Below are positions 35,357-49,709 of a stretch of DNA of 64,000 nucleotides, in pieces; position 1 is the stretch's first letter, and the number at the start of each line of letters is the position of its first letter. The stretch is from Gemmatimonadales bacterium (GTDB lineage Bacteria > Gemmatimonadota > Gemmatimonadetes > Gemmatimonadales > GWC2-71-9), in assembly GCA_035501775.1 (NCBI GenBank), contig DATJVM010000064.1, forward strand, positions 81,171 to 145,170, written 5' to 3'. Position numbers and translations under genes: made by a program. Below the pieces are notes generated by a model. It made no database searches. It was not told where the DNA came from and saw nothing but the letters and a program-made list of their open reading frames with translations.

Positions 35357-36987
35357 CGGCGCTCGACTGGGTAGTGGTCGGCGCATACATCGCGATGAGT
35401 CTGGCGCTCGGGCTCTGGGTCGCGCGCCGGGGCGCGCGTAACCTGGCGGAGTTCTTCGTGGGCGGCCGGGCCATTCCGTGGTGGCTGGCGGCGACCTCCA
35501 TGGCGGCGACGACGTTCAACGTCGATACCCCGCTCTACGTGGCCGGGCGCGTGGCCCGGGCGGGCGTGGCGGGCAACTGGGAGTGGTGGTGCTTCGCCTT
35601 TGCCCACGTGCTGCTGGCGGTGATGCTGGCCAAGCTCTGGCGGCGCGCCAGCGTCGTGACCGATCTGGAGCTGATCGAGCTCAGGTACGACGGGCCTCCG
35701 GCAGCCTTCCTCCGGGGGTTCCGCGCCTTCCTCTTCGCCGTGCCCCTCAATTGCATCTCGATCGGCTACGCCATGCTCGCCCTCCGGAAGGTGGCCGCCG
35801 GGCTCGGCCTGTTCGAGGGGCTGCACGGACTTCCCGGCGACCCCCGCCTCTGGGCGCTGATGCCGATCGTCGTTGTGACGCTCACCTATACCGCCGTGGC
35901 CGGCCTCTGGGGGGTCGTGGTCACCGATCTACTGCAGTACATCCTGGCCATGCTGGGCGCCCTCCTCGTCATGGGGTACGCGCTCCGCGAGGTAGGCGGG
36001 CTCCATGCGCTCACCGCAGACCTCCGGGCCGCCGGCCAGGGAGCCCACCTCCAGCTGGTGCCGCATGGGGAAGACGCGCTGCTGCCGCTGAGCACCATGC
36101 TGGGATACCTGTTCATCCAGTGGTGGGCGTTCCGAAACAGCGACGGGGGGGGAATGTTCGTCCAGCGGCTCTCCGCCACGGCCGACGAGCGGGAAGCCGC
36201 ACGTGCCTCGCACCTGTTCAACGTCCTCAACTACGTGGTGCGCACCTGGCCGTGGGTTCTGGTCGGCCTGGCCGCGCTGGTGCTTCTCCCCGGGCTCAAG
36301 GACCCGGAGCTGGCTTACCCTCTGTTGATGCGGCGCTATCTCCCGCCCGGAGTGCTGGGCCTGGTCTTCGCGAGCCTGGTCGCCGCCTTCATGTCCTCCG
36401 TCTCGACCCAGATCAACTGGGGCGCCAGCTATCTGGTGAACGATCTCTACGGACGCTTTGCCAGGGTGCGCGATGAGCGCAAGCTGCTCGCCGCCGCCCG
36501 TCTGGCGTCGGTGGTGCTCACGCTGCTCGCGGCCACGCTGTCGTTCTTCATGGATGATGTCGGTCAGGTCTTTCGCTTCCTGATCCTGATCGGCAATGGT
36601 CCGGGGCTGGTGCTGCTGTTGCGCTGGTTCTGGTGGCGCATCAATGCCTGGGCCGAAATTGCGGCCATGGCGGCGTCGCCGGTATTCGCGCTGGTCAGCT
36701 TCTGGCCGGGCTTCGAGGGCGCCACCTTCGGGGCCCGCATCGCGTGGACGGCCCTGGGCACGATGGCGGTCTGGGTTCCCGTAATGCTCTGGACCCAGCC
36801 GGAGCGCCCGGAGGTGCTGGAACGGTTCTACCGGCGGGTTCGCCCCGGCGGGGCGTGGGGGCCGCAGGCCGCGGCGACCGGCCTGGCTCCCCTCGACCGG
36901 CTCAGCCGGGATCTCGGACGATGGTTGGTCGCGTGCGCGGTGCTGCTGGCAGGGATGCTTGGCGTGGGTGCGCTCCTACTGCGATAG
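35353..36987 (+). CDS. Sodium:solute symporter (SSF) family transporter
   Basis: About 13 hydrophobic helices and the N-terminal pattern DWVVVGAYIAMSLALGLWVARRGARNLAEFFVGGRAIPWW, typical of SSF. GTG start overlaps the nagZ stop (GTGA). Confidence 0.8.
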   Translation: MTALDWVVVGAYIAMSLALGLWVARRGARNLAEFFVGGRAIPWWLAATSMAATTFNVDTPLYVAGRVARAGVAGNWEWWCFAFAHVLLAVMLAKLWRRASVVTDLELIELRYDGPPAAFLRGFRAFLFAVPLNCISIGYAMLALRKVAAGLGLFEGLHGLPGDPRLWALMPIVVVTLTYTAVAGLWGVVVTDLLQYILAMLGALLVMGYALREVGGLHALTADLRAAGQGAHLQLVPHGEDALLPLSTMLGYLFIQWWAFRNSDGGGMFVQRLSATADEREAARASHLFNVLNYVVRTWPWVLVGLAALVLLPGLKDPELAYPLLMRRYLPPGVLGLVFASLVAAFMSSVSTQINWGASYLVNDLYGRFARVRDERKLLAAARLASVVLTLLAATLSFFMDDVGQVFRFLILIGNGPGLVLLLRWFWWRINAWAEIAAMAASPVFALVSFWPGFEGATFGARIAWTALGTMAVWVPVMLWTQPERPEVLERFYRRVRPGGAWGPQAAATGLAPLDRLSRDLGRWLVACAVLLAGMLGVGALLLR

Positions 36988-39900
36988 CGGCGCGACTGCC
37001 GAAGGCGGCCAGGTCCTCCATCGGGGATGGCTCATTGATGGCGAATCCCTGCGCATAGTCGACGCCGAGGGCGCGGAGGGTGTCGAGCGTCTGGAGATTC
37101 TCGACCCCTTCCGCCACGGTCTTGAGGTGCATTACGTGCCCGACTCGGTTGATGGCCTCCACCATCGCGTACTCCACCGGGTCGGCGTCGATGTGCCGCA
37201 GAAACGCTCCGGCGATCTTGAGGAAGTCCACCGGCAGGCTCTGCAGGTAGGCGAACGAGGACATCCCGCTCCCAAAGTCGTCCAGGGCGAACCAGCATCC
37301 GAGCGCCTTCAGCTCCCGGATGAAGTGCGCGGCCTGGGCCAGATTGGCGATCGCCGCGGTCTCGGTGATCTCGAAGCAGAGCGATTCGGGCGGCAGGTCG
37401 TACCGGTCGAGCTGATCGCGCACGAAGGCGAGCATGCCGGGGTCGCCGAGTGAGGCGCCCGAGAGGTTGATCGACGCGATGGGCCGCATGCCGTTGCCGC
37501 GCTGATGGCCGTACAGGGACATTACCTCGCGCAGCACCCAGCGGTCCACCGCCCCCATCAGGCCGTACCGTTCGGCGGCGGGGATGAAGGCGCCTGGCGC
37601 GATGAGGGTGCCGTCCCGCTCGACCAACCGCAGCAGGACCTCGACGCGGGGACGCTCGCCCGGGTGCGGGCTCAGGGGCAGGATCGCCTGGCCGAACAGG
37701 CGGAACCGGTGCTCCTCGAGCGCGGAGGTGATCCTGGTGACCCACTGCATCTCCCCTTGGCGCAGGGCGAGGACCGCGTCGTTGGGCTCGTAGAAGTGCA
37801 CCCGGTTGCGGCCGCGCTCCTTGGCCGCGTAGCAGGCCGCATCGGCGTGCCGGAGGACCGTGGCAAGGCTCTCGGTTTCGGTGGTGATCGGTACCACTCC
37901 CACGCTTACGCCGAGCGCGAAGGGCTGGCCTTCCCAGGCAAAACGAAACTCCTGGACCGTCTCGAGCAGATCGTGCGCCACGCGGGTGGCCTGGCCGGGT
38001 GGGCAATGCTCGAGCAGGACGCCGAACTCGTCGCCCCCCAGGCGGGCCAGGGTGTCGCGGCGGCGCACTTTCTTGAGCAGCTCGTTGGCCAGTCGGCGCA
38101 GCAACTCGTCGCCCGCTACATGGCCGCAGGTATCGTTGACCACCTTGAACTGGTCGAGATCGAGGAAGCAGAGGGCGTGCTGCACGCCTTCCTGCTGCGC
38201 ACGACTGATCGCGCGGCCAACCCGGCGCTCGAACTCGTGCCGGTTGACGAGCCCTGTCAGGAAGTCGTGGCTGGCCTGATGCGCCAGCTGGCGCGCCAGG
38301 GTCCGCGCCCGGCTCACGTCATGGAAGACGAGGACCGCGCCGATCACCTCGCGCTCTCGATTGGTGACCGGGGCGGCGCTGTCGTCGATGGCGAACTCCC
38401 GTCCATCGGGCCGGACCAGCAGGGAGAGATTGGAGCGCCCAATGACCCGCTTCTCCCGGAGGCAGGTTTCGATCGGATTCTCGAGCGGCTCCCGCGTGGT
38501 CTCATGCACCAGCGAGAGCACGTTGGCGATGGGGAGGCCGATCAGCTCGCTGTTGCGGGATCCGAGGAGCTGCTCCGCCACCGGGTTCAGGTATTCGATG
38601 ATGCCCCTGGCATCGGTCCGGACAACGGCGTCCCCGATGGAGCCAAGCGTAACCTCGGCACGCTCCTTCTCCTCGGCCAGGCGGCGCTCGAAGCGCTTCC
38701 GCTCGCTGATGTCGCGCGCGATCGTGGAGTAGAACTCCACCTCCCCGGCCGGGTTGCGATGGCAGATGATCACCTGCGAGAAGGTGACCTCGCGCCCATC
38801 GGCCGTGAGCAGCGTCGCTTCTCCGCTCCAGGTTCCCGCCTCGGCGGCGGCCGCCAGCGTCTGCGGCCGGAGCAGGACCCGCGCCCAACCCGCGGCCGCC
38901 TCGGGACGGCCGTCCGGCGTCTGGCCGCCGAGCAGGAGCCGCCCGGCCTCGTTGAGATAGATGGCGCGGCCTTCGCGGTCCGCGAAGCACACCGGATCGG
39001 TGGTGGTCTCGAGCACGGCTGCCAGCCGGCGCTGCAGCGCCGACAGTGTGACCGCTCGGTGCTTCGACTGGCGGAGCATCACCAGCACCGCCGTAAAGAG
39101 CACCAGCGTGACCAGGAGCGCCCCGAGCAGCGCGCTCCGCGCGACGTCGAGGACGTGATACGCCTCGCCGGCCTCGCTTTCGGCCGCCAGGCCGAGGCCC
39201 AGTTGATCGTCCCATTCCCAGGCGCCGACCACCGAGATGCCGCGATGGTTGAGGTATCCGCGGAGGTCGAGGCCGGCGTTGCCGTGAATGGCGGACTGCG
39301 CCATCTCGGTCAGGCGCCCGGTGCCCGGCACGACGAGCGGCGTCCCGGCCGTGTCGTCACTGGTTGGATCGCCACTCCCCAGCAGGCGGCCGGCGCGATC
39401 GAAGAAATAGGCGTGGCCCAAGGCGCGGTTGCGGCTCTGTTCGGTCAGCCGGGCAAACTCGCGCTGCGAGGCCAGCGAGGTGACGAGGACCGCGGTGGTG
39501 ATTCCGCTCGCGTCCCGGATCGGCGCGAACGCAGCGAGGCGCGGCACGTGCGCCGTGTCTCCCGGGAAGGGGCTGAACGAGGGCAGCCCATCCATGGCCC
39601 GCTCCAGAGCCGGGGTCATGAACCGCGGCAGGCTTGCCGGGAGCGAATCGGGCCAGCGGGTGAGGGTGGTCTCGTCTCCGTCGATGATCCAAAACCCTTC
39701 GAGGTCGTTGGCGCGGATCGCCCCTTCCAGCAGGCGGTAGGCGTCCCCGGACGGAGCCTCCGCGGTCCCGGTCCGAGCGCGAGCGATGGCGAGCTGGTCC
39801 ACGACTCCCGCCAGCCCCTTCGTGGCGGCCATGGTCGCGGCCTCCGCCTGCTGCCGGGTGGCCCAGTGGTGCACCGCCTCGCGGGATTCCGCGAGGACGG

Positions 39901-40084
39901 TCTGCAGGCCGCGCCCTGCCGACTCCCGGACAGCCCCGTCGATCCGGCTCAGTGCCCACCAGGCGCCAGCTCCGACTCCAACCACGAAAAGCGCGATTCC
40001 ACCCAGCGCCGCCTCCGACGGGAGGCGCGCGAGGGCACCACGCGATTGGCGGTTGAGCCGGAAGGAAGCCATGGCGCCCATCAT
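36902..40084 (-). CDS. Membrane sensor diguanylate cyclase/phosphodiesterase (periplasmic sensor, PAS x2, GGDEF, EAL)
   Basis: Two TM segments flank a ~280-aa outside region. PAS-like repeats follow, then RLGGDEFGVLL (GGDEF). EAL-domain motifs are EVLLR, EITE, ALDDFGSG and KIAG. 1060 aa. Confidence 0.9.
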   Translation of the reverse strand: MMGAMASFRLNRQSRGALARLPSEAALGGIALFVVGVGAGAWWALSRIDGAVRESAGRGLQTVLAESREAVHHWATRQQAEAATMAATKGLAGVVDQLAIARARTGTAEAPSGDAYRLLEGAIRANDLEGFWIIDGDETTLTRWPDSLPASLPRFMTPALERAMDGLPSFSPFPGDTAHVPRLAAFAPIRDASGITTAVLVTSLASQREFARLTEQSRNRALGHAYFFDRAGRLLGSGDPTSDDTAGTPLVVPGTGRLTEMAQSAIHGNAGLDLRGYLNHRGISVVGAWEWDDQLGLGLAAESEAGEAYHVLDVARSALLGALLVTLVLFTAVLVMLRQSKHRAVTLSALQRRLAAVLETTTDPVCFADREGRAIYLNEAGRLLLGGQTPDGRPEAAAGWARVLLRPQTLAAAAEAGTWSGEATLLTADGREVTFSQVIICHRNPAGEVEFYSTIARDISERKRFERRLAEEKERAEVTLGSIGDAVVRTDARGIIEYLNPVAEQLLGSRNSELIGLPIANVLSLVHETTREPLENPIETCLREKRVIGRSNLSLLVRPDGREFAIDDSAAPVTNREREVIGAVLVFHDVSRARTLARQLAHQASHDFLTGLVNRHEFERRVGRAISRAQQEGVQHALCFLDLDQFKVVNDTCGHVAGDELLRRLANELLKKVRRRDTLARLGGDEFGVLLEHCPPGQATRVAHDLLETVQEFRFAWEGQPFALGVSVGVVPITTETESLATVLRHADAACYAAKERGRNRVHFYEPNDAVLALRQGEMQWVTRITSALEEHRFRLFGQAILPLSPHPGERPRVEVLLRLVERDGTLIAPGAFIPAAERYGLMGAVDRWVLREVMSLYGHQRGNGMRPIASINLSGASLGDPGMLAFVRDQLDRYDLPPESLCFEITETAAIANLAQAAHFIRELKALGCWFALDDFGSGMSSFAYLQSLPVDFLKIAGAFLRHIDADPVEYAMVEAINRVGHVMHLKTVAEGVENLQTLDTLRALGVDYAQGFAINEPSPMEDLAAFGSRAAIAVGAHPRQASLPAAPRTRPTIVRDPG

Positions 40085-40173
40085 GTGTGTTGGGTGACGT
40101 TCGGGCGGTGACCGATCTCACCTAAGTGCCCATGCCGTCACAAGATGGCTGGATGGACGGAGCCGGAACTCCG

Positions 40174-41646
40174 CTATTCGCCGGCGAGCAGTTCGTGCAC
40201 GAAGCGTACCGGTACGGCGTAGATGATCCGGCCATTGCTGCCGGTCTGGCCTCCATAAAGGACGCCAATAACACTCCCGTTGCGGTCGAAAATCGGGCTC
40301 CCACTCGAGCCCTCGGCGCCATAGCTGTCCAGCTGGAGAAGGTCGGGGAGAGTACGGGAAACCGTGCCCAGGGTAAGGGTAGCCGCGACACCCTCGTGCG
40401 CCCAGGACGATCCTCCCGCCAGGTCCAGGCCGAGCGGAAAGCCCAGCACCGCCGCGGGCTCGCCCATTTCGTCCGGTCGCGTGCTGTCCGCGAGCGCCTT
40501 CACGACGGGAAACCCGCGGTGCACCGAGGCATGCAGGAGCGCGAGATCCGCCCCCGGATGCACCTTCACGACGTCGGCTCGAAAGTTCTGATTGGTGCCG
40601 TTGAACACCACGCCGATCCGCGAGGCGAGGGTTCCGTTCGAATCGCTCACCACGTGCTTGTTGGTGATGAGGAGCCCGCCGTTGGGATCGGAGCGAACGG
40701 CGAACGCCGTCCCGGTGTAGATCTTCCCGTTGGGGAACTGCACCCACACCATCGCCACCGCATCCCGGTTCGCCGCTGCGATCCCGTGGGCATCGAGCGC
40801 CGCGGCGCCGGCCAGAGTCCGCTGCTGGCGGATGGCCTTCTCGAGACGCCGCTTGAGGCTATTGATCTGGTCGGCGTCGTTCGGGGCGGCCGCGAGTTGC
40901 TGCTTGAGCTGTTCCGCTGCCAACTGCGCGGAATCGAGCGCGGCGCGGAGTCCGGCGCTCCCGGCCGAGAGATCGCCGATCTGCTGCATCAGGCTGTCCA
41001 CCTGGCCGAGCAGTGCCTGCCGCTGCGCGGCCAACCGCCGGTCCGTTTCGTGGGTCTGCCACAGATATGCTCCGGACACACCGACGAGCAGGAGGAGCAG
41101 CCCCGCGGCCGTCAGCCGGAGCCTTCGCGTCTGGCGCGCCACCTCGACGCGGACCCGCGCCGTGGTGCCGCCCAGCGGTCTCCCAGCCGGTACCACCGGT
41201 TGACGATCCTTGGTGGGACGAGGCGGGGCCTGGGGTGGGGTCGACGCCCGCGCCTGCTCCTGACCGCCGAATACCTGTGTGCCACTTCGGGACCCCGCCG
41301 ACTCGGCGGGCGCCCCCGCTCCCGACGGGCGTCGGTCGGGGATGGCCGTGAACTCGACCTGCGGGCCGTTCGGGCCGAACCGGATGATGTCCTTGGTGGC
41401 GAGCGCGCATTCCTTGGTCAGCTGCTTGCCGTTCACGAACGTGCCGTTCGTGCTCCCGATGTCCCGCAGGATGTACTGCTCCCCGACCAATGTGGCGACG
41501 GCATGTCGGCTGGAGACGTCGAGGTCTTTCTCCGGGTCGAACTTGAGTTCGGAATCAGGGTGCCGACCCATCGCGATGTGGGCCTGACTGAGAATGTCAG
41601 TCTGGCCCGCGCGGCTGCCCGAGAGAAAGGTGAACTGGGCCTTCAT
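40174..41646 (-). CDS. FHA domain - TM - coiled coil - trypsin-like (S1/HtrA-like, no PDZ) serine protease
   Basis: N-terminal FHA (MGRHPDSELKF...SSRHA...DIGSTNGTFVNG), TM LTAAGLLLLLVGVSGAYLW, and a Q/A/L-rich coiled coil. The protease core has NKHVV (His), GADLALL (Asp) and GSSGSPIF (Ser). Confidence 0.85.
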   Translation of the reverse strand: MKAQFTFLSGSRAGQTDILSQAHIAMGRHPDSELKFDPEKDLDVSSRHAVATLVGEQYILRDIGSTNGTFVNGKQLTKECALATKDIIRFGPNGPQVEFTAIPDRRPSGAGAPAESAGSRSGTQVFGGQEQARASTPPQAPPRPTKDRQPVVPAGRPLGGTTARVRVEVARQTRRLRLTAAGLLLLLVGVSGAYLWQTHETDRRLAAQRQALLGQVDSLMQQIGDLSAGSAGLRAALDSAQLAAEQLKQQLAAAPNDADQINSLKRRLEKAIRQQRTLAGAAALDAHGIAAANRDAVAMVWVQFPNGKIYTGTAFAVRSDPNGGLLITNKHVVSDSNGTLASRIGVVFNGTNQNFRADVVKVHPGADLALLHASVHRGFPVVKALADSTRPDEMGEPAAVLGFPLGLDLAGGSSWAHEGVAATLTLGTVSRTLPDLLQLDSYGAEGSSGSPIFDRNGSVIGVLYGGQTGSNGRIIYAVPVRFVHELLAGE

Positions 41647-41665
41647 GGCGCTGACGGGCGACCGA

Positions 41666-42688
41666 TCATCCGGTGCCGAGCAGGAAGAAGGCCGCCAGGG
41701 CGAGGAGGAGGAGCGCCAGCAGTCCGTAGATCAGACGGCGCGACTGGGTGGGCTGTTGACTGATCGGGACCGGCGCGGGGCTACCGGTGTAGACCGGCAC
41801 CGGCTCCGTGGTCGCCTCGCCCTCGGTGAGGGGATACACCTGGTGCCCCACCTGGGCCCCCCCCTCGGGCTCCGGAAGGCCGTTGCCACCGAAGCGTGCC
41901 GCGATGACTGTGATGTTGTCCGGGCCACCCCGGGTGTTGGCGAGCTCGATCAGCCGGGAGCAGAGGTCCGCCAGGTCGGCGGCCTTCGCCGCGTATTCCG
42001 CGATTTCCTCCTTCCTGACCAGCCCGGACAGGCCATCCGAGCACAGGACCAGGAGGTCCCCTCGACGCAGTGGTTGCCAGGTGAGGTCGACCTTCACCCG
42101 CGGGTCGGGGCCGAGCGCCTGCAGGATGATGTTCCGGCGCTCGCTCTGCTCGGCTTCTTCCTCGGTGATCTCCCCGGCCTCCACCAGCCGCTGCATGAGG
42201 GACTGGTCCTTGGTGATCTGGGTGATCTCGCCTTTCCGGATGAGATAGGCCCGGCTGTCGCCGACCTGCGCGAGATAGAGGTCGGAGCCGAAGATCCCCG
42301 CGACGGTGGCCGTGGTGCCCATGCCGCGCACCTCGGGATGTTCCCGGGCATGGACGTGGATCCGGCTGTTCGCGAGATCGACCGCCTCCTTCATCCGGTA
42401 GGCGAAGCGCTGCGCGGTGACCTCCGCGTCGTCCGGCCAGACCGTGGTCATGTGCGTGAAGACCAGGTCGGCCGCCATCCGGCTTGCGACCTCACCGGCG
42501 GCGGCTCCGCCCATCCCGTCCGCGACCATGAAGAGGGAGCCGCGGGCACCGACCTCATGCTCACGGACGTCAGGCTGGAGGCTCGCCACCCGGCGGGTGA
42601 GGTCCGCGACGAGGAAGGTGTCCTCGTTGTGCTCGCGGGTTCGGCCGACGTCGGTCTTGCCGAAGACGGAGATATGGACGCTAGGCAC
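41666..42688 (-). CDS. PP2C-family Ser/Thr phosphatase with C-terminal membrane anchor
   Basis: GRTREHNEDTF, MVADGMGGAAAGEVAS, LCSDGLSG and DNITVIAARF. C-terminal TM LIYGLLALLLLALAAFFLL. Confidence 0.9.
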   Translation of the reverse strand: MPSVHISVFGKTDVGRTREHNEDTFLVADLTRRVASLQPDVREHEVGARGSLFMVADGMGGAAAGEVASRMAADLVFTHMTTVWPDDAEVTAQRFAYRMKEAVDLANSRIHVHAREHPEVRGMGTTATVAGIFGSDLYLAQVGDSRAYLIRKGEITQITKDQSLMQRLVEAGEITEEEAEQSERRNIILQALGPDPRVKVDLTWQPLRRGDLLVLCSDGLSGLVRKEEIAEYAAKAADLADLCSRLIELANTRGGPDNITVIAARFGGNGLPEPEGGAQVGHQVYPLTEGEATTEPVPVYTGSPAPVPISQQPTQSRRLIYGLLALLLLALAAFFLLGTG

Positions 42689-42694
42689 GTAACC

Positions 42695-44407
42695 TCATGG
42701 ATGAACGAGCTGCCGGAGCTGCTCAATCAAGGTCTGTCCTGTCGGTGTCGCCCGGAGATCCTGGGATTTCTGAGCCCAGGACAGGGCGTCCGCGTACTTC
42801 TTGTCCTGCTGGTAGGCAACGGCGACCATGTTTGCAGCAATGGCCCGTATCGAGTCCGAGACGTCCTGGCGGTGGTAGATCGCCTCCGACTTCTGTCGGG
42901 CCGCCTCGCGCTTTGAAGGCTCGAAGACGTCGTCGATCTCCGGGAGAACTACCGCGGCGGAGGTAGTCGGGACGGTCGACCGACCAACCTGCCCGCCATC
43001 GGAGTGGCGCGTCGGCTGCTCGCTCGGAGTTCCCGTTCGTCGGCCCCCTGCCGGCTGTGATGGCGCGGGGGCCGGAGGCTTGGCGCTGTCCACCGGCGCC
43101 GGGGGCTGGCTGGGCACGGTCTTGGTCGTGTCCGGCGCCGGCACGGTCTTGGGTGGCGTGTTTGCGGCGAGAGACGGATTCGGTCCCTCGTTTCCGCCGA
43201 ACAGCCGACCCCGGAGCAGGAACCCCGCGCCACCAACGAGCAGGATGCCGATGCCCGCGGCGATCGGGAGCAGCGGCAATCCCCGCTTGGGGGGAGCCGG
43301 CGGTGGCGCCTTGACGCGGGCGGTGCTGGCCGGTGGCTTGGCTCGGGCCTGGGCGGCGGCGGGATCGACTCGGGTGGCCGGAGGCGCCGCGGGTCTCCCA
43401 TGCAGATCCTCGGGCCGGACCAGCTGGGTCCCGGCATCGACGTCGACCTGGCCGGTCAGACGGGTGGCGAGGCCCCGCACGTCGCGGGCGAGATCGCCCG
43501 CGTTGCGATACCGGTCGTTCGGGTTTCGGGCCAGGGCCCGGTCCAGTACCCGCTGGACCTCCGGGGGGAAGCTCACATCGGGGCAGGCCACCGCCAGGGG
43601 CAAGGGATCGTCGGTGAGACGCTTGATCATCGTCTCCTGCTGGCTGTCGGCCGGGAACGGCGAGGCGCCGGTCAGCATGCGATAGAAGACGAGCCCCAGC
43701 GAGTAGATGTCGCTCCGGCCGTCGACCGGGTCGCCGGCGAGCTGCTCGGGACTCATGTACTCCGGGGTGCCGACCACGAATCCCGTCTTGGTCACCTTCT
43801 GCGCCCGCCCCTCATCTCCCCCGATGGCCTTGGCGATCCCGAAGTCCACCACCTTGACGACGTCCTTACCCCGGGTGGTGGTGACCATGATGTTGTCGGG
43901 CTTCAGGTCGCGATGGACGATCCCCATGTCGTGGGCCACCTGCAGCGCCTCGGCGGTCTGCTGGATCATCGCGGCCGCGCGGGGGAGCGGCAGGGTCGAG
44001 ACCTCGTGCAGGAGGTCGGTCAGACTCCTCCCCTCGATGAACTCCATCGCGAGGTAGATCAGCCCTTCGGGGGTCTCGCCGAAATCGTAGATGGAACAGA
44101 CGTTGGGGTGGTTGATGCGGCTGGCGTTGGCGGCTTCCCGATTGAAGCGACTGATCGCTTCGGGGTCGCTCATCGTACCCGGCATCATGATCTTGATGGC
44201 GCAGCGGCGGCCCATCTTCACGTGCTCGGCCAGGTAGACCTGACCCATGCCGCCTTCGCCCAGCTTCTTCGTGATGTGGTAGCGGTCGGCGATCACCTGC
44301 CCGACCAGATCGTTGACGGCCCCGGACTTCCGGAGCGGGGTGCCATCCCGCTCGCAGAACAGCTTCTCGTCGCCGTATTCGGCGCCGCACGTGGTGCAGA
44401 CCTTCAT
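42695..44407 (-). CDS. Hanks-type Ser/Thr protein kinase with N-terminal zinc-ribbon-like motif, one TM and a TPR-like outside tail
   Basis: GEGGMGQVYLAEH, CAIKIM, HRDLKPDNIM, DFGIAK and TPEYMSPEQ. TM LLPIAAGIGILLVGGAGFLL. N-terminus CTTCGAEYGDEKLFCERDG. Confidence 0.9.
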   Translation of the reverse strand: MKVCTTCGAEYGDEKLFCERDGTPLRKSGAVNDLVGQVIADRYHITKKLGEGGMGQVYLAEHVKMGRRCAIKIMMPGTMSDPEAISRFNREAANASRINHPNVCSIYDFGETPEGLIYLAMEFIEGRSLTDLLHEVSTLPLPRAAAMIQQTAEALQVAHDMGIVHRDLKPDNIMVTTTRGKDVVKVVDFGIAKAIGGDEGRAQKVTKTGFVVGTPEYMSPEQLAGDPVDGRSDIYSLGLVFYRMLTGASPFPADSQQETMIKRLTDDPLPLAVACPDVSFPPEVQRVLDRALARNPNDRYRNAGDLARDVRGLATRLTGQVDVDAGTQLVRPEDLHGRPAAPPATRVDPAAAQARAKPPASTARVKAPPPAPPKRGLPLLPIAAGIGILLVGGAGFLLRGRLFGGNEGPNPSLAANTPPKTVPAPDTTKTVPSQPPAPVDSAKPPAPAPSQPAGGRRTGTPSEQPTRHSDGGQVGRSTVPTTSAAVVLPEIDDVFEPSKREAARQKSEAIYHRQDVSDSIRAIAANMVAVAYQQDKKYADALSWAQKSQDLRATPTGQTLIEQLRQLVHP

Positions 44408-45321
44408 GCCAGCTCCGCCCTCAGCATCTGGTCTCCCGCGAGGAGGCGCGCGTTGGGCGACACCCGGCGCTCCCCGCGCACGGCGATCGCCACGCCATTG
44501 CGGCTGCCCGCGTCCACCAGGACGAAATCCGCATCCTCGCTCCGAACGAGCGCGTGGAGCGCACTCATGGATGAATCATACGGAAACTGCCACTCACCCT
44601 GCTCGCGACCCACCCGAACCGTGCGGCCCGGGGAGAGGGTGATGATGTCGCGCGGGCTCCCATCCGCCCGGATCTGGGCGAGGTTGGCGATATCCGCCGC
44701 GGGGGTGAGGCTCCCCAACCGGCGGGTCTGGTCCTGCTCGGGCGGGCGGGGCCCCGGGTAGCCCAGTCGGCGGAAGCGGAGGATCTGGCTGCCGAGGAGC
44801 ACCAGGTCGCCGTCGGTGAGGCGATGGGGCTCGTCGAGATAGAGCCACGTCCCGTTCTTGCTGCCCAAGTCCCGGACAGTCAGGATCCCGTCCAGATAGA
44901 GGAACTGTGCGTGGAGCGGTGAGAGGTAGTCGTCATCCGGAAAGTTGATATCCGCTCCCTGCCGACCCAGCGTGGTCACCGCGGTCGCCAGCGGAAAATG
45001 CTGGGCCACCTGGCCGCTCCGGTCGAGCAGCGCCAGTCGCGGTGAAGTCGGTCCGCTCTTGATCGGCGCCGCGGCAACCTGGGGCTGAGGCCCGGTGTCG
45101 CTGAAGGCCGCGCCGCAGGCGGGGCAGAACTTCGAGCCTTGATCGTTCAGCCGGCCGCAGCGGGTGCAGGCGTGCGCCGCCCGGATCTGGGTGAGTCGGG
45201 CCCCGCATTGGCCGCAGAAGGGCAGGTCCCCCTTCACCGGCGCGTTGCAGGAGGGACACTTCACGGTCGCGCCGGCGGTTGCCACTCCCCGGGAAGCGTC
45301 AGGCACGGGCGGCGACATCAT
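44404..45321 (-). CDS. Double zinc-ribbon plus two FHA domains protein
   Basis: CPSCNAPVKGDLPFCGQCG and CTRCGRLNDQGSKFCPACG, followed by two FHA cores (LGRQGADINFP..SPLHA..DLGSKNGTW and VGREQGEWQFP..SALHA..DAGSRNGV). The stop overlaps the kinase start (ATGA). Confidence 0.85.
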   Translation of the reverse strand: MMSPPVPDASRGVATAGATVKCPSCNAPVKGDLPFCGQCGARLTQIRAAHACTRCGRLNDQGSKFCPACGAAFSDTGPQPQVAAAPIKSGPTSPRLALLDRSGQVAQHFPLATAVTTLGRQGADINFPDDDYLSPLHAQFLYLDGILTVRDLGSKNGTWLYLDEPHRLTDGDLVLLGSQILRFRRLGYPGPRPPEQDQTRRLGSLTPAADIANLAQIRADGSPRDIITLSPGRTVRVGREQGEWQFPYDSSMSALHALVRSEDADFVLVDAGSRNGVAIAVRGERRVSPNARLLAGDQMLRAELA

Positions 45322-45412
45322 CTCGTCCGGGGGACGGATGCGGCTGCAAGGTGGCGACCAGCACGCGCCGTGGGCATGACGATTCGGGGTTCCCCATGCT
45401 GAGACTGAACTA

Positions 45413-45434
45413 GACTAAGGAAGGGCGACTAAGG
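45413..45434. repeat. Direct repeat GACTAAGG x2 (14-bp period) in the divergent promoter region
   Basis: Copies at 45413-45420 and 45427-45434, inside a locally AT-richer stretch between the FHA operon start and the amidase gene. Confidence 0.5.
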
Positions 45435-45509
45435 GAATCTAGAAATCGCGGCGAGGAGCGTCAACCAATGTCCTGCCGTAAGTCGCGGTGCCCGTGTACC
45501 TTGCACCCC

Positions 45510-47453
45510 ATGCGCCGCGGAACCTCGCTCGGCCTTGCTCTCGCCTGCGCCGCAGCCTGCGCTCGTGTGCCACCCGGCACTCCCGTACCCGCCTCGGGGC
45601 CGAGCCGTCTTCCGCCCGTGCCTCTCGTGCGGGGCCCGCTACGGATCGCGGTGGTTTACCCCGCTCCGACGGACGTGGTTGACGTCCGCGATTCCATCTT
45701 CCTGTTCGGCAGCGTGGGGACCGGTCTCGCCCAGCTCACGGTGAACGGTGCCCCCGTGCGGGTCTGGCCCGATGGCGGGTGGCTGGCCTGGGTGGCCGCG
45801 CCGAATCCAGCCGATTCGATCATGTCTTTCATCCTCGCCGCTCGGACCGCGGGAGACTCCGCCACGCTGGTCTATCCGGTCCGACGCTCGCGGCGGTTCA
45901 TCCCCCCGCCGAGCGGAGTCTGGATTGACTCGGCTTCGGCGACCCCCGCCGGGCGGGTCTGGTGGCCGGCCGGAGAGTACCTCCCACTGAGCATACGCGC
46001 CGCGGAAGGTGCTACGGTGCGGGTCCGCTTTCCCGGCGGTCTGGTGGTACCGCTTGCTCCCGATGCAGGGCTGGGGGAGGTATCGGTCGCAATCCGCGCG
46101 TTCGATCGAGACACGAACAACCTGGTGGCGCCCCGGGAGGCGGATCGCTACACCGGCGCGATTCGCGGGCTGGCCGTGGGCAGTGATCCGGGGCCGTTCC
46201 TTGGCCACGGACCGGGTCCTTCGCCCGGTGGGGACAGCGGAGCCGTGGTGGAAGCGATCCTCGGCTCTGATACCGCACGAGTCCGATGGCCCCTGCGCAT
46301 CGCTCTGCTCGACACTGTGCCGGACCTGATGGAATTCAACGATGATACCGCTGGAACCGGGACTACCGATAGTCTCACCGTCGGGAGGGCGCGTCCTGGT
46401 GCCACTTACCATTGGTTCTTCCCGACGGGAACCCGAGTCGTGGCCAGCGGTCGCCTGGGAGACGATCTGCGGGTGCGCCTCTCGCGCGGGCAGGAGGCGT
46501 GGGTGGCCGCCCCCGATGCAGTGCCGCTGCCCCGCGGAGGGGCGGACTTGCGTGGGACGGTGGGGTCCCTGACCCTCACTCCCGCTCCTGACCGACTGAC
46601 GCTGCGCGTGCCAGTCACGGAGCGCGTTCCGTTCCGCGTGGAGGAGAGCGCGGGGCGTCTCACCCTGCGCCTCTACAACGCGGTCAGCGACGCCAACTGG
46701 ACCCGCTACGGTCGGACTGACCCTTACGTGCGGGACATCAGCTGGCAGCAGGAGACGGCCGACGAACTGACCATCACCCTGACCCTCTCCGGTCCGGTCT
46801 GGGGCTACCGTGCCCGGTGGGACCGGAACGACCTGCTCTTCGAAGTTCACCGACCGCCGGCCATTCATGCGGGCCGGCCCCTGGAAGGGTTGCTCATCGT
46901 GGTCGATCCGGGACACCCCCCGCTCGGGGCCACCGGCCCGACCGGACTCCGTGAGGCAGAGGCAAACCTGCACGTCGCCTTATTGCTCCGCGACCTGCTG
47001 GCGGAGGGAGGCGCCCGTGTCGTCATGACGCGGAGCGCCGACCAGAGCCTCGAGTTGTGGCCGCGGGTGAAGCTGGCGGACAGCCTCGGCGCAGATCTCC
47101 TGATCTCGGTGCATAACAACGCCCTGCCGGATGGGGTGAACCCCTTCACGAATAGCGGCGCCAGCGTTTTCTATAATCATCCGCGGAGCCTCCCCTTGGC
47201 GCGGGAGATCCAGGCCGCTCTGGTGGAGCGGCTCGGGGTTCGCGACCTGGGCGTCGCCCGGGGCGACCTGGCCCTGGTCCGCCCGACCTGGATGCCGGCG
47301 GTCCTAACCGAGGGACTCTTCATGATGCTGCCTGACCAGGAGGCGGCGCTGCGCAGTCCGGATGGGCAGCGGGCCTATGCGCTCGCCGTTCGCGATGGGA
47401 TCGTTCACTATCTGCAACGTGTGGCGGAAGGGTCGGGACCGAACGTCCCCTGA
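45510..47453 (+). CDS. N-acetylmuramoyl-L-alanine amidase (Amidase_3) with a long uncharacterised N-terminal region
   Basis: C-terminal VVDPGHPPLGATGPTGLREAEANLHVAL...ADLLISVHNNA...GASVFY...LTEGLFM. Lipoprotein-like N-terminus LALACAAAC from ATG 45510. Confidence 0.8.
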   Translation: MRRGTSLGLALACAAACARVPPGTPVPASGPSRLPPVPLVRGPLRIAVVYPAPTDVVDVRDSIFLFGSVGTGLAQLTVNGAPVRVWPDGGWLAWVAAPNPADSIMSFILAARTAGDSATLVYPVRRSRRFIPPPSGVWIDSASATPAGRVWWPAGEYLPLSIRAAEGATVRVRFPGGLVVPLAPDAGLGEVSVAIRAFDRDTNNLVAPREADRYTGAIRGLAVGSDPGPFLGHGPGPSPGGDSGAVVEAILGSDTARVRWPLRIALLDTVPDLMEFNDDTAGTGTTDSLTVGRARPGATYHWFFPTGTRVVASGRLGDDLRVRLSRGQEAWVAAPDAVPLPRGGADLRGTVGSLTLTPAPDRLTLRVPVTERVPFRVEESAGRLTLRLYNAVSDANWTRYGRTDPYVRDISWQQETADELTITLTLSGPVWGYRARWDRNDLLFEVHRPPAIHAGRPLEGLLIVVDPGHPPLGATGPTGLREAEANLHVALLLRDLLAEGGARVVMTRSADQSLELWPRVKLADSLGADLLISVHNNALPDGVNPFTNSGASVFYNHPRSLPLAREIQAALVERLGVRDLGVARGDLALVRPTWMPAVLTEGLFMMLPDQEAALRSPDGQRAYALAVRDGIVHYLQRVAEGSGPNVP

Positions 47454-47480: not shown

Positions 47481-49709
47481 ATGCCAGCACGTTTCCATCT
47501 GCTCCGCTACGGTGCCGGCTTGATGTTGTTTGCCGCGGTGCCCGTATGCGCCCAGTCGCCGAGTGACCGGGCGGCCATCGCCCGGTTCAGCGACTCGCTG
47601 GAGAACCTGGAAGACAGCAGCGCCCTGCGCGACCTCGAAGCGCGGCTCATCGAGGTGGCCAAGGCCGACCGCGACAACGCGATGCATCACCTGCGTCTGG
47701 GTTTCGTGGCGCTCCGCCTCGGCGATGTCTCGGGCAAGACGCACTACGACGATGCCGCCGGTGAGTTCGAGTGGGCCACGGAGCTGCAGCCCCAGTGGCC
47801 CTGGGGCTGGTACGGCCTCGGCATCGCGGAGGACCGAATCGGCGATTCCGAGGTGTCCCTGGTACAGGGCCTCCAGGCCATGTTCGGCAAGGATCACCTG
47901 AGTCGGGCCGCCAACGCCTACGCCCATTCGGTGCAGGTGGATCCGTCCTTCGTGCGGGGCCTGGTGGACCTTGCCGCCACCGCGTTACGCCAGCGAATCA
48001 ACATCAAGATCGACCTGGCCCGCGAGGCGCTGCGTCAGGCGGCCCTCACCTCCGCAGCGGCCAATCCCGAAGTGCTGCTCTACCGGGGTCGGGTGGAGCG
48101 GGAGGTGGGGGATATCGACTCCGCGACTGCCGCGTTCCGCGGCTATCTCGTTCGCGGTGGCAACCGGGGACTGGGCCTGCTCGAGCTGGCGCGAACCGAG
48201 CTTCTCCGCGGCTCCCTCCGCGGGCAGCTGCCCTACTATGAGGGGGCCGCCAGCGACGATTCGACCTCGGTGGCCGGGTATCGGCAGGACCTGGAGGTCA
48301 TCGCCAACGACAGCGCCCTCGCCGAGTTCGATCACAGCACCGCGGCCCGGCGGGTGGCTTTCCTGCATCGTTTCTGGGGGCAGCGCGACCGGGCCTCCCT
48401 GCTCGTGGACGGGGCGCGCCTGTGCGAACATTATCGCCGGATCTTTTACGCGCGGAAGAACTTCCAGCTGGTCAGCTCCAACCGGCACTACGATATCGTC
48501 GAGCGATTCCGGAGCGGCAATCCGGATTTCGACGATCGGGGAGTGATCTACATCCGGCACGGCGAACCCACGGAGCGCGCCTCCTATGACGCACCCGGCA
48601 TGCCGCTCAACGAATCCTGGTATTACAAGCGAGCGGATGGGGATCTGGTGTTCCACTTCGTGGCCCGGGAAAAGGTCGGCGACTACCGGCTGGTCGAGAG
48701 CGTGTTCGATATCCTGGGGTTCGGAAGATCCCTGGCGATCCGGGGCGATCGTGAGTCGCCGGCGGACGCGGAGCGGGCCGATCAGCTGGTGCTGACCCGG
48801 GAAGACTTCTCTCCAGTCTATACGCACCTGCTGTCGAGCAGCAATGTGGGAGCGCAGAAGTATTTCACCGAAGAGCGAATGCTGGGGCGCCACAGCATCG
48901 CCATCGGGACCCACTCCGACAGCTACGAGATCTCGTACGCCCGTCACCTCGATGCCCTCACCAGCGTGGTGGTGGCGGGCCATGATTCGAGCGAGAGCCT
49001 CCTGCATGTGTCCTACGCCATACCCGGCTCCGCCCTGCACGAGGTCCCCAGCGACCGGGGCCACCTTTACCCCGTGCGGCTCCGCTTGAGCGTCACCGAC
49101 CGAACCGGCCGTCTCGTCGCCGCCATCGACACGACCCGGCTCTTCCTCGCGACCGACCCGGTACCGGCTCAGGAACACTTGGTCGGACAGGTGAGCGTGC
49201 CGGTGATACCGGGCGAGCTGGTCTATCGTATCGCACTCGAGCAAGGCAGCGACAACGGCACCGTTCTGCCCGCAGACACCATCACGGCCGGAGACTTCGA
49301 GGGGCACCTGTTTTCCCTGAGCGGGCTGGTGGTCGGGCTTCGAGACGCCCACCTCGCCTGGTTGCCAGCTCCGGGGGATACCGTCTGGTTCAACCCGCTC
49401 GGGCGGTTTCGTCGCGCGGCGGAGATGGAGCTGTATTACGAGGTATATGGCGCTCCCGCCGGCGCCGGGCTCAAGACGGAGGTTGCGGTCACCAAGGAAG
49501 GGGGCGGCGGCTTCCTGGGCCTCTTTGGGTCCAAGAAGCCGGCGATTCATCTCGGCTTCGAGGATCAGAGCGAAGGGACCGAGAGCCGCTTTCACCGGAC
49601 GCTGTCCCTCGAGCGTCTGTCCACTGGCCGCTACCACCTCGATGTCAGCGTCACGAATCCGGACGGCGTGACCCGCCGCAGCCACGCGACCTTCGAGGTC
49701 GTACCGTAA
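47481..49709 (+). CDS. Secreted GWxTD-domain-like protein with N-terminal TPR-like region
   Basis: Signal peptide. FLHRFWGQRD...EHYRRIFYARKNF...DDRGVIYIRHGEPTE resembles the GWxTD family core, with a degenerate motif. 742 aa. Confidence 0.55.
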   Translation: MPARFHLLRYGAGLMLFAAVPVCAQSPSDRAAIARFSDSLENLEDSSALRDLEARLIEVAKADRDNAMHHLRLGFVALRLGDVSGKTHYDDAAGEFEWATELQPQWPWGWYGLGIAEDRIGDSEVSLVQGLQAMFGKDHLSRAANAYAHSVQVDPSFVRGLVDLAATALRQRINIKIDLAREALRQAALTSAAANPEVLLYRGRVEREVGDIDSATAAFRGYLVRGGNRGLGLLELARTELLRGSLRGQLPYYEGAASDDSTSVAGYRQDLEVIANDSALAEFDHSTAARRVAFLHRFWGQRDRASLLVDGARLCEHYRRIFYARKNFQLVSSNRHYDIVERFRSGNPDFDDRGVIYIRHGEPTERASYDAPGMPLNESWYYKRADGDLVFHFVAREKVGDYRLVESVFDILGFGRSLAIRGDRESPADAERADQLVLTREDFSPVYTHLLSSSNVGAQKYFTEERMLGRHSIAIGTHSDSYEISYARHLDALTSVVVAGHDSSESLLHVSYAIPGSALHEVPSDRGHLYPVRLRLSVTDRTGRLVAAIDTTRLFLATDPVPAQEHLVGQVSVPVIPGELVYRIALEQGSDNGTVLPADTITAGDFEGHLFSLSGLVVGLRDAHLAWLPAPGDTVWFNPLGRFRRAAEMELYYEVYGAPAGAGLKTEVAVTKEGGGGFLGLFGSKKPAIHLGFEDQSEGTESRFHRTLSLERLSTGRYHLDVSVTNPDGVTRRSHATFEVVP

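Follow-up and report, generated by a model that had tools for sequence, protein, structure and literature searches.

The 64,000-nt stretch of a Gemmatimonadales bacterium genome analysed here (GCA_035501775.1, contig DATJVM010000064.1, 81,171-145,170 of the forward strand; hereafter the window) contains four tightly packed genes, for a soluble protein with two FHA domains, a Hanks-type serine/threonine kinase, a PP2C phosphatase and a membrane-spanning protein with an FHA domain at one end and a trypsin-like protease at the other. We propose, with a probability of about one half, that this cassette is one Gemmatimonadota-specific threonine-phosphorylation signalling unit in which an envelope protease itself serves as FHA reader. 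In the order of transcription, and with positions counted from the first letter of the window, the genes are as follows.

44404-45321, minus strand: 2xFHA adaptor gene, 305 aa
42695-44407, minus strand: kinase gene, 570 aa
41666-42688, minus strand: PP2C gene, 340 aa, GTG start
40174-41646, minus strand: FHA-protease gene, 490 aa

An earlier, sequence-only reading of this DNA had described the four genes as packed on the minus strand, and the open reading frame (ORF) list and a direct reading of the junctions agree with it: the first two genes share an ATGA start/stop overlap (44404-44407), which is followed by a 6-nt gap and then a 19-nt gap. Its parts list of one kinase, one PP2C, three FHA domains and one membrane-spanning S1 protease is likewise confirmed by profile matches and intact residues. 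It knew of no characterised system wired in this way, and the literature that we searched in full text indeed describes neither an FHA-HtrA nor an FHA-trypsin fusion, nor such a cassette. The novelty lies in the membrane-spanning effector of a kinase/PP2C/FHA module that is otherwise of a known kind.

Conservation and probable operon structure

The order 2xFHA, kinase, PP2C, FHA-protease was found in 12 of 12 Gemmatimonadota genome loci, to the limit of each contig, and the expectation that relatives would keep it was therefore correct as far as the contigs reach. These loci, all from metagenome-assembled genomes (MAGs), are our main synteny sample, and 80 further metagenome loci form a second one; labels such as L001 denote homologous loci in other genomes and metagenome contigs. 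The genome scan used a single-protein query and thus covers close relatives: most of the 12 loci share ~75-88% identity with the window in the 2xFHA protein, the kinase domain and the PP2C, values being lower for L011 and L012, and for the protease the figure is 52-72%. For the PP2C alone, identity is 75-86% in 11 of the 12 loci and 58-71%, over split matches, in L012. The arrangement is also retained in distant members with 33-40% identity (L013-L015 and L021-L023). Among metagenome loci with enough sequence, 50 of 52 have the PP2C gene as the immediate upstream neighbour of the protease gene, and 25 of 26 have the kinase gene in the expected upstream place. Because it recurs in all 12 genome loci and on dozens of metagenome contigs, the arrangement cannot be attributed to chance. 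On the MAG contigs of L010 and L012, tblastn matches to cassette genes are split or frame-shifted, which probably reflects assembly errors rather than pseudogenes.

The earlier reading had asked whether the gene order extends to other phyla. Judged by organism names, which a minority of the sequences carry, the cassette is confined to Gemmatimonadota: the named homologues of the protease and the 2xFHA protein come from Gemmatimonadales, Gemmatimonadaceae, Gemmatimonas sp. and Longimicrobiales, and the sole named exception is one MAG with an Acidobacteriota label. When 1.84 billion cluster representatives were searched exhaustively with phmmer, the FHA-protease family came to 282 clusters (50% identity) at E <= 1e-30; the best 150 of these clusters are mostly full-length FHA-transmembrane-protease proteins of ~420-520 aa, with about two dozen shorter fragments. 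As judged from these sequences, the family is large and old, yet apparently restricted to one phylum.

Upstream of the cassette, the scan of positions 36500-46000 identified a single promoter-like site, followed by a leader.

45436..45464, minus strand: sigma-70-like promoter TTGACG-17 nt-TAGATT, within the 146-bp divergent intergenic region
45322-45435, minus strand: leader of ~110 nt, from the conserved -10 hexamer to the first start codon

This is the only promoter-like site in the 9.5 kb scanned, and both of its hexamers are kept in five of five aligned orthologous intergenic regions, while the spacer, the leader and the surrounding sequence drift. Inside the cassette, the scan found no promoter-like sites and no terminator-like sites on the minus (coding) strand, the one terminator-like match there, at 41506-41522, being on the plus strand. 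Given the coupling distances between the genes and the single conserved promoter-like site, it is reasonable to read the cassette as one operon. The leader shows patches conserved among the orthologous loci; a riboswitch or other RNA element in it was considered and rejected, as no Rfam family reached its gathering score anywhere in the window, where no tRNAs were found either.

A phosphothreonine reader joined to an HtrA-like protease

The last gene of the cassette encodes the proposed effector, which is divided as follows.

aa 1-102: FHA domain
aa 108-164: disordered linker
to aa 296: stalk
aa 297-487: protease domain

Profile searches support both the FHA domain (Pfam, 55.3 bits against a cutoff of 20.7) and the S1 protease domain (Trypsin_2, 73.8 bits), a hydropathy scan places a single transmembrane segment at aa 178-196, and the AlphaFold2 model (mean pLDDT, the predicted local distance difference test score, 87) has one long helix, aa 162-225, that holds the transmembrane segment and leads into a helical stalk. 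The FHA domain, membrane segment and trypsin-like protease that had been read from the letters are thus supported. In Foldseek, the best-matching structures are protease domains, from DegP, DegQ, DegS-deltaPDZ and human HtrA1 (E ~1e-14), with template modelling scores of ~0.75-0.84 against protease-domain-only entries (DegS-deltaPDZ and the HtrA1 catalytic domain), the highest, 0.84, being to DegS-deltaPDZ. By sequence, the closest PDB entries are HtrA1 and MarP of Mycobacterium tuberculosis for the protease domain and GarA/OdhI for the FHA domain. No PDZ domain was found with Pfam, and in the model the protein ends at the protease domain. The scores of the named HtrA/DegP families stay under their cutoffs (degP_htrA_DO, TIGR02037, 46.4 bits against 416; DegS, 22 bits against 423), as does that of the MarP family (NF033740, 55.5 bits against 250), and with one transmembrane segment only the protein is not MarP. 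Profiles and model together identify the protease domain as a PDZ-less HtrA-like S1C fold with an intact triad.

No residue of the triad (H331, D367 and S450) is kept in fewer than 94% of 126 family representatives, and the same minimum applies to each of the FHA residues R28, S45, H48 and N67; the phosphothreonine-binding motifs of this FHA domain are GR27/SSRH45/NG67. As the triad is so widely kept and the fusion is kept throughout the family, proteolysis and phosphothreonine reading appear to have been selected together. This observation bears directly on a different view of the protein, according to which it would serve mainly as a scaffold or kinase substrate, in the manner of TagH/Fha1 or FhaA, its proteolysis being unregulated quality control and the kinase exerting its real effects through the 2xFHA adaptor, the amidase pathway described below or other substrates. 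There is precedent for such a role, since Fha1/TagH, FhaA and FipA are scaffolds and kinase substrates in known systems (PMC13584744), and the adaptor is better conserved than the protease in the same genome loci. We nevertheless regard this view as improbable: a triad kept across such divergent representatives, in a fusion found family-wide, speaks against an incidental protease, and it is the 2xFHA gene that is dispensable, being absent from a clade associated with type VI secretion systems (T6SS) and from L021 and L069, whereas the FHA-protease is the constant member.

The protease domain would be periplasmic and its FHA domain cytoplasmic. Such an N-in orientation is suggested by the charge distribution at the transmembrane segment and by the cytoplasmic origin of phosphothreonine, which obliges its FHA reader to be on that side too. 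Cytoplasmic locations are similarly predicted for the kinase domain, the PP2C, each of the three FHA domains and the zinc ribbons of the cassette.

Writer, eraser and second reader

The kinase matches the Pfam Pkinase model with 178.8 bits (cutoff 31.7) over a domain at aa 43-300 that contains AIK at aa 70-72 (K72), HRDLKPDN at 165 and DFG at 188, and by profile and motifs it is a Hanks-type Ser/Thr protein kinase. Its N-terminus carries a CxxC...CxxD zinc-ribbon-like motif, unscored by Pfam, and the hydropathy scan places its single transmembrane segment at aa 379-397. Beyond the membrane, a long, Pro-rich and disordered periplasmic tail ends in a conserved helical domain of ~80 aa, which can be aligned between kinases from the two genomic contexts distinguished below, amidase-type and T6SS-type. 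A Hanks kinase with one transmembrane segment and a Pro-rich outside tail had been anticipated; only the length of the tail, put at 200 aa, needs correction to ~173 aa.

The phosphatase passes the equivalog cutoff of the NCBIfam Stp1/IreP PP2C model (NF033484; 241.8 bits against 230, model positions 1-231 of 232) and by this measure is a member of the Stp1/IreP family. It also matches Pfam PP2C/PP2C_2, with a catalytic domain at aa 1-266 and the metal-binding motifs DGMGG at aa 57 and DN at aa 257. The profile and the hydropathy scan, which finds a transmembrane segment at aa 319-337 of 340, agree with the earlier description of a PP2C with a C-terminal membrane anchor.

The second reader, the 2xFHA adaptor, has no transmembrane segment in the hydropathy scan and consists of four parts.

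aa 22-69: double zinc ribbon (four CxxC)
aa 95-185: FHA1
aa 186-211: linker
aa 212-303: FHA2

Pfam scores are 36 bits for DZR and 67.4 bits, over two stretches, for FHA (cutoff 20.7), and the AlphaFold2 model has two confident FHA folds separated by a low-confidence or disordered linker. The phosphothreonine-binding residues of both domains (GR119/SPLH134/NG156 in FHA1; GR238/SALH253/NG275 in FHA2) are invariant in 30 of 30 homologues (54-88% identity), as are T199 and much of the linker around it, which includes EQDQTRRLGSLTP and contains QTRRLGSLTP. Of the cassette proteins, the adaptor is conserved best: its identity is 76-86% in eight of the ten genome loci where it is seen, 66% in L011 and ~51% in L012. 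The pentapeptide QTRRL, which includes T199, is shared with the FHA-protease, where it lies just before the transmembrane segment; the threonine there, T173, was set aside as a third phospho-site and is a weak lead only, conserved in 81 of 126 representatives and placed within a confidently predicted helix. A public gene call, P0400 (300 aa, 100% identical to the adaptor), starts five codons (45307-45321) downstream of the ATG adopted here.

Two threonine motifs in the kinase linker

The juxtamembrane linker of the kinase is unalignable among homologues save for two short islands, both of which centre on a threonine.

43418..43435, minus strand: kinase motif 1, A-G-T327-Q-L-V (TQ plus two hydrophobic residues), candidate phosphothreonine docking site for the 2xFHA adaptor
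43361..43381, minus strand: kinase motif 2, P-A-T345-R-V-D-P, candidate phosphothreonine docking site for the protease FHA domain

The second motif has the general form hydrophobic-P-x-T-R/x-V/I/M and, as PxTRV, occurs in both amidase-type and T6SS-type kinases. The pattern T[RK][VIL] is found in 33 of 47 kinase linkers, against 3.9 expected from shuffled linkers, and most of the kinases without it have P-x-T-x-[V/M] variants. Since the protease FHA domain is in every cassette, the simplest reading of this co-occurrence is that the PxTRV threonine is its docking site. The first motif has a narrower distribution: TQ followed by two hydrophobic residues is present in 26 of the 30 kinases whose immediate upstream neighbour is a DZR-2FHA gene and in none of the other 14 (Fisher p = 2.7e-8, a value that overstates the case because the lineages are not independent). 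The 14 kinases comprise 11 of the T6SS type and three others, among them the amidase-type L021 and L069, in which the amidase gene is directly upstream of the kinase, and the co-occurrence is seen in at least two separate lineages. As the motif goes together with the 2xFHA gene, the TQ threonine would be the docking site for the adaptor.

Some kinases deviate at these and other sites. In L019, the PxTRV threonine is replaced and the site reads PSEAQ, possibly a phosphomimetic change. The T6SS-type kinases (L016-L020) have D-F-D (VVDFDIAK) in place of the canonical D-F-G and lack the N-terminal zinc-ribbon motif; the zinc ribbon is also absent from the amidase-type L021 kinase, which has no 2xFHA partner.

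A sister clade within type VI secretion clusters

The kinase, PP2C and FHA-protease genes, here called the triad, also occur as a sister clade within T6SS clusters. The order there is TssK-TssL-TssM, a lipoprotein, kinase, PP2C (sometimes missing) and FHA-protease; downstream, a CsgG-like gene runs convergently on the other strand. This arrangement was present in five of five inspected loci (L016-L020) and in about 20 metagenome loci (including L027, L028, L030 and L063), and the genes of the triad show 4-nt overlaps in these loci too. Among the 80 metagenome loci, 37 are amidase-type, 20 are T6SS-type, none is mixed and 23 are too short; because the search patterns come from the T6SS-type clade, the ratio of 37:20 is not an unbiased frequency. 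The patterns derive from a 12-sequence alignment of that clade, an alignment of 35 family sequences having been rejected as too divergent for the purpose.

Comparison across the two contexts gives 54% identity for the kinase domain and 43-45% for the PP2C. With this identity and with a kinase periplasmic domain that can be aligned across the contexts, the triad is one evolutionary unit that has become attached to two envelope machines, and as both types occur within Gemmatimonadaceae, we take them to be paralogues with separate contexts.

The embedding of the sister triad in T6SS clusters raises the question of whether the window cassette might itself be the threonine-phosphorylation pathway of a T6SS encoded elsewhere in the genome. 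We consider this very unlikely. None of the genes of such a system was found in the 64-kb window by tblastn with the sister-locus TssL and TssM as queries (TssK was not queried), the two contexts are mutually exclusive and belong to paralogues, and the window-type kinases have a zinc ribbon, the TQ motif and a 2xFHA partner, all of which the T6SS type lacks. The sister clade also counts against the most deflationary account, in which the cassette is no functional unit and its adjacency merely reflects inherited order in a slowly rearranging region. Other genes of the region, including those for RNR, the TPR protein, a second kinase, MurQ/AnmK/NagZ and gamma-glutamyltranspeptidase (GGT), are indeed syntenic across the phylum. 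Yet the cassette genes lie at translational-coupling distances, the triad stays intact in a different type of locus, overlaps included, and the presence of a docking motif tracks the presence of the reader gene, so that we give this account next to no credence.

Several details of the T6SS-type loci may be recorded here. The PP2C gene is missing between the kinase and the FHA-protease in some of them (L018:8078-11422, L019:8243-11353 and L041). The lipoprotein encoded between TssM and the kinase has 172-217 aa and no Pfam match, and is at most a candidate TssJ. In three of the five TssL proteins of L016-L020, the N-terminus has an A-T-x-D-P/S motif that resembles the A-T-R-V-D-P island of the kinase and recalls the phosphorylated N-terminal threonine of Agrobacterium TssL.

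Probable link to peptidoglycan turnover

In the window, the cassette stands back to back with an amidase gene, and a trio of peptidoglycan-recycling genes lies beyond its other end.

45468-47453, plus strand: Amidase_3 gene (N-acetylmuramoyl-L-alanine amidase), divergent; Amidase_3 domain aa 477-645, 127 bits
31894-32820, plus strand: MurQ-like gene (Pfam, tblastn)
32817-33923, plus strand: AnmK gene (Pfam, tblastn)
33920-35356, plus strand: NagZ-like GH3 gene (Pfam, tblastn)

In the first samples, all 16 informative loci, the window among them, have a divergent amidase gene next to the cassette, as do 10 of 13 metagenome loci with enough sequence upstream, which makes 26 of 29 informative loci overall. 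The N-terminus of the amidase resembles a lipoprotein signal peptide with a lipobox-like sequence, and its N-terminal region of ~440 aa has no family match; a signal peptide of this type would place the amidase in the same compartment as the protease domain. The three recycling genes overlap one another and are an associated context outside the operon. They are adjacent and convergent to the protease gene in L014, L015 and L021 and separated from it by a few genes in L013, and in many lineages, including many metagenome loci, they directly follow it on its downstream side; in the window, a transporter of the SSF family and a GGDEF-EAL gene, both lineage-specific insertions, separate the trio from the cassette.

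With an amidase as the usual partner, a lipoprotein-type signal peptide on it and peptidoglycan-recycling genes alongside, the output of the cassette in the window genome is most likely the control of peptidoglycan hydrolysis. That the specific target is the divergent Amidase_3 lipoprotein or one of its regulators is a more doubtful proposition. A precedent exists in M. smegmatis, where the membrane-anchored HtrA-LppZ counteracts the toxic amidase Ami3 and the cytoplasmic N-terminal domain of HtrA is essential (PMC6538288).

A proposed model of phosphothreonine-gated proteolysis

We suggest that the small helical domain in the periplasm lets the kinase respond to a cue from the envelope, whereupon the kinase autophosphorylates T327 and T345 in the juxtamembrane linker. 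Phosphorylated T345 (PATRVDP) would recruit the FHA domain of the protease and phosphorylated T327 (GTQLV) the 2xFHA adaptor, whose linker threonine T199 is probably phosphorylated as well, giving rise to multivalent clustering of FHA domains and phosphothreonines. Clustering, or a reorientation passed on through the transmembrane helix and the stalk, might then switch on or position the PDZ-less HtrA-type domain, and the membrane-anchored PP2C would reset the state. HtrA-type proteases are regulated by oligomerisation, and the characterised relatives work as oligomers. The gating of proteolysis by phosphothreonine finds indirect support in the conserved threonine motifs and their co-occurrence with the readers, and binding of an FHA protein to a phosphothreonine on a membrane protein has a parallel in Agrobacterium, where Fha binds phosphothreonine on TssL and the T6SS is activated (PMC3953482).

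In its full form, the model is an inside-out one: two distinct phosphothreonine codes on one kinase tail would address two FHA readers, and the phosphorylated sites would cluster the bitopic FHA-HtrA protease and so switch on the cleavage of particular envelope proteins, the targets being the amidase or its regulators in one paralogue and constituents at the T6SS membrane complex in the other. We hold this version tentatively. Signalling might instead run from the outside in, with the HtrA-like domain as sensor or first actor, like DegS, cleaving the periplasmic tail or the helical sensor domain of the kinase or another membrane protein; the FHA domain would then only hold the protease beside the active kinase, and proteolysis would tune or end the signalling rather than be its output. 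The fold of the protease domain is closest to DegS/DegP/HtrA, and DegS is a membrane-anchored stress sensor; the disordered, Pro-rich tail and the small conserved domain of the kinase, present in both contexts, would make a plausible substrate; and the co-inheritance data fit this direction equally well. However, the PDZ domain, which is the source of sensing in DegS and DegP, is absent, a cytoplasmic phospho-reader on a protease is most simply explained as an input from the kinase, and the cassette is without an anti-sigma or transcription-factor partner. On balance, we think the outside-in direction unlikely.

Several observations weigh against the reading of the cassette as a phosphorylation-controlled protease unit, or at least against parts of it. 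Every step beyond gene content is an inference, and the results are compatible with signalling in either direction, inside-out or outside-in. The co-occurrence of motif and reader reflects few independent lineages, namely the T6SS clade and three kinases without a DZR-2FHA gene upstream, and the +3 residue of PxTRV is variable, which is unusual for classical FHA ligands. The amidase is missing from its position in 3 of 13 metagenome loci (L040, L043 and L058), and some of its adjacency elsewhere may be inherited order, because the region (RNR, TPR protein and GGT) is syntenic within the phylum. Finally, one FHA-transmembrane-protease gene, at L065:9989-11332, is an orphan, the 10 kb upstream of it containing neither a kinase nor a PP2C; it is preceded by TPR and Big_2 proteins and followed by a CsgG-like gene.

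Relation to known systems

The sequence-only reading had taken the actinobacterial operon FhaA-FhaB-PstP-RodA-PbpA-PknA-PknB as the nearest comparison. The threonine-phosphorylation pathway of the T6SS is closer in both logic and ancestry, as a sister clade of the triad sits inside T6SS clusters. The minimal set of that pathway is tagE, tagG and tagH (PMC13584744), and in TagE/PpkA-TagG/PppA-TagH/Fha1, as in the window, a membrane Hanks kinase, a PP2C and an FHA protein are encoded together. Its FHA protein reads phosphothreonine on a membrane partner (PMC3953482), as we propose for the window, and the sister triad follows TssK-TssL-TssM, where tagE/ppkA, tagG/pppA and tagH/fha normally lie. 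There are also differences. The window is devoid of T6SS genes as judged by the tblastn searches described above, and its FHA protein is a bitopic HtrA-like protease rather than a cytosolic TagH; the VI_FHA model (TIGR03354) gives the 2xFHA protein 27 bits, where 120 are required, and has no match in the FHA-protease. PpkA has a vWA domain, whereas the window kinase has no vWA match and carries a small helical ectodomain instead, and a second reader, the DZR-2xFHA protein, is additional in the window. A 2026 review of T6SS accessory factors does not list a protease-fused FHA protein (PMC13584744).

With the actinobacterial operon, the cassette shares FHA proteins, a membrane PP2C, a Hanks kinase and a link to the cell wall. 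The window FHA domains score best against FhaB/FipA and OdhI/GarA models, at 50.8 and 53.7 bits for FhaB_Rv0019c against a cutoff of 125, and PknB_PASTA (NF033483) reaches 318.5 bits against a cutoff of 450 over the kinase domain only (aa 36-367), with no Pfam PASTA match. RodA and PbpA, which belong to the actinobacterial operon, are neither in nor beside the window cassette, which has the protease as an extra member.

On the protease side, mycobacterial HtrA and MarP also have a membrane-anchored periplasmic S1 protease domain. HtrA has a cell-wall hydrolase as its target (PMC6538288), and in the window an amidase gene is the usual neighbour and its product a candidate target; Ami3 is an Amidase_2 protein and the window neighbour an Amidase_3 protein. 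Mycobacterial HtrA has a PDZ domain and a cytoplasmic N-domain, whereas the window protein has no PDZ domain but a recognisable FHA domain with a dedicated kinase and phosphatase. MarP has four transmembrane segments to the one of the window protease, and it reportedly activates the peptidoglycan hydrolase RipA. DegS, DegP and DegQ (MEROPS S1C) have the same protease-domain fold, and DegS likewise combines an N-terminal anchor with a periplasmic catalytic domain; these proteins have PDZ domains, which the window protein lacks, and the latter has in addition a helical stalk of 100 aa and an FHA domain in the cytoplasm.

For the readers, the adaptor can be likened to FraH of Anabaena, which has an N-terminal double zinc ribbon, a Pro-rich part and a single C-terminal FHA domain and a link to the envelope or septum; FraH is not known to be encoded with a kinase/PP2C/protease cassette. 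The ABC transporter Rv1747 resembles the window system in being a membrane effector with its own FHA reader beside its kinase: it has two FHA domains, is regulated by the neighbouring kinase PknF and is phosphorylated by PknF on threonines of its disordered inter-FHA linker (PMC3138270, PMC8339232). This linker is similar to the invariant T199 linker of the adaptor, disordered, threonine-bearing and set between two FHA domains. The effector is an exporter in Rv1747 and a protease in the window, where a soluble zinc-ribbon protein of its own carries the two FHA domains.

The usual trigger of regulated proteolysis in the bacterial envelope is external, as with DegS and RseP, and phospho-signalling through FHA domains normally ends in cytoplasmic scaffolds, transporters or enzymes. 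If our proposal is true, an HtrA-type protease with an FHA domain attached across the membrane links the two and would allow the reversible, kinase-controlled destruction or processing of periplasmic proteins at a chosen place. Both among T6SS accessory factors and among regulators of cell-wall hydrolases, such a protein would represent a new class, and the control of cell-wall hydrolases by proteases (HtrA-Ami3, MarP-RipA, Prc-MepS) would gain a phosphorylation-gated form. Being wired both to an amidase/recycling locus and to a T6SS membrane complex, the triad can be seen as a portable module that offers a natural comparison for finding substrates. What the present analysis adds is the T6SS-embedded sister clade, the recurrent amidase and recycling context and the two reader-specific threonine motifs, from which testable predictions follow; the predicted sites T327 and T345 in the kinase and T199 in the adaptor make the hypothesis directly testable. 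Interest is limited by the phylum being little studied, with few genetic tools, and by the mechanism being inferred.

Further neighbours of the cassette

The earlier view of an envelope-related neighbourhood, with a divergent cell-wall amidase, a second zinc-ribbon kinase and a GGDEF-EAL protein, agrees with the ORFs and Pfam matches. The remaining genes around the cassette are these.

49777-51852, plus strand: second bitopic kinase, with zinc ribbon, Pkinase, transmembrane segment, PEGA and TonB_C-like C-terminus
36902-40084, minus strand: dCache/PAS/GGDEF/EAL gene, 89 nt past the protease gene
30074-31849, minus strand: gamma-glutamyltranspeptidase, just upstream of the recycling trio
47481-49709, plus strand: 742-aa secreted protein with weak TPR matches only, after the amidase in most amidase-type loci

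The second kinase may feed the same FHA readers. A conserved neighbour, it is found on the other side of the amidase-TPR pair in most loci of the amidase type, and in L058 it borders directly on the cassette. The GGDEF-EAL gene does follow the protease gene on the same strand, at the distance first reported, but a place in the module was rejected for it: it is found after the protease in L001-L010 and is absent from L011, L012 and all deeper lineages, in which the next gene is one of MurQ/AnmK/NagZ or another, which makes it a lineage-specific neighbour. An anti-phage defence system was also considered and dismissed, the PADLOC matches (PD-T4-6, mad6 and others) being generic kinase and protease matches with none for the 2xFHA protein or the PP2C. 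The ORF of the SSF-family transporter (35272-36987, plus strand) overlaps that of the GGDEF-EAL protein by 86 nt at their convergent 3' ends (36902-36987), and the corresponding overlap in L002 is shorter, ~20 nt. In the distant loci, proteins of 733-981 aa occupy the place of the 742-aa TPR-like protein.

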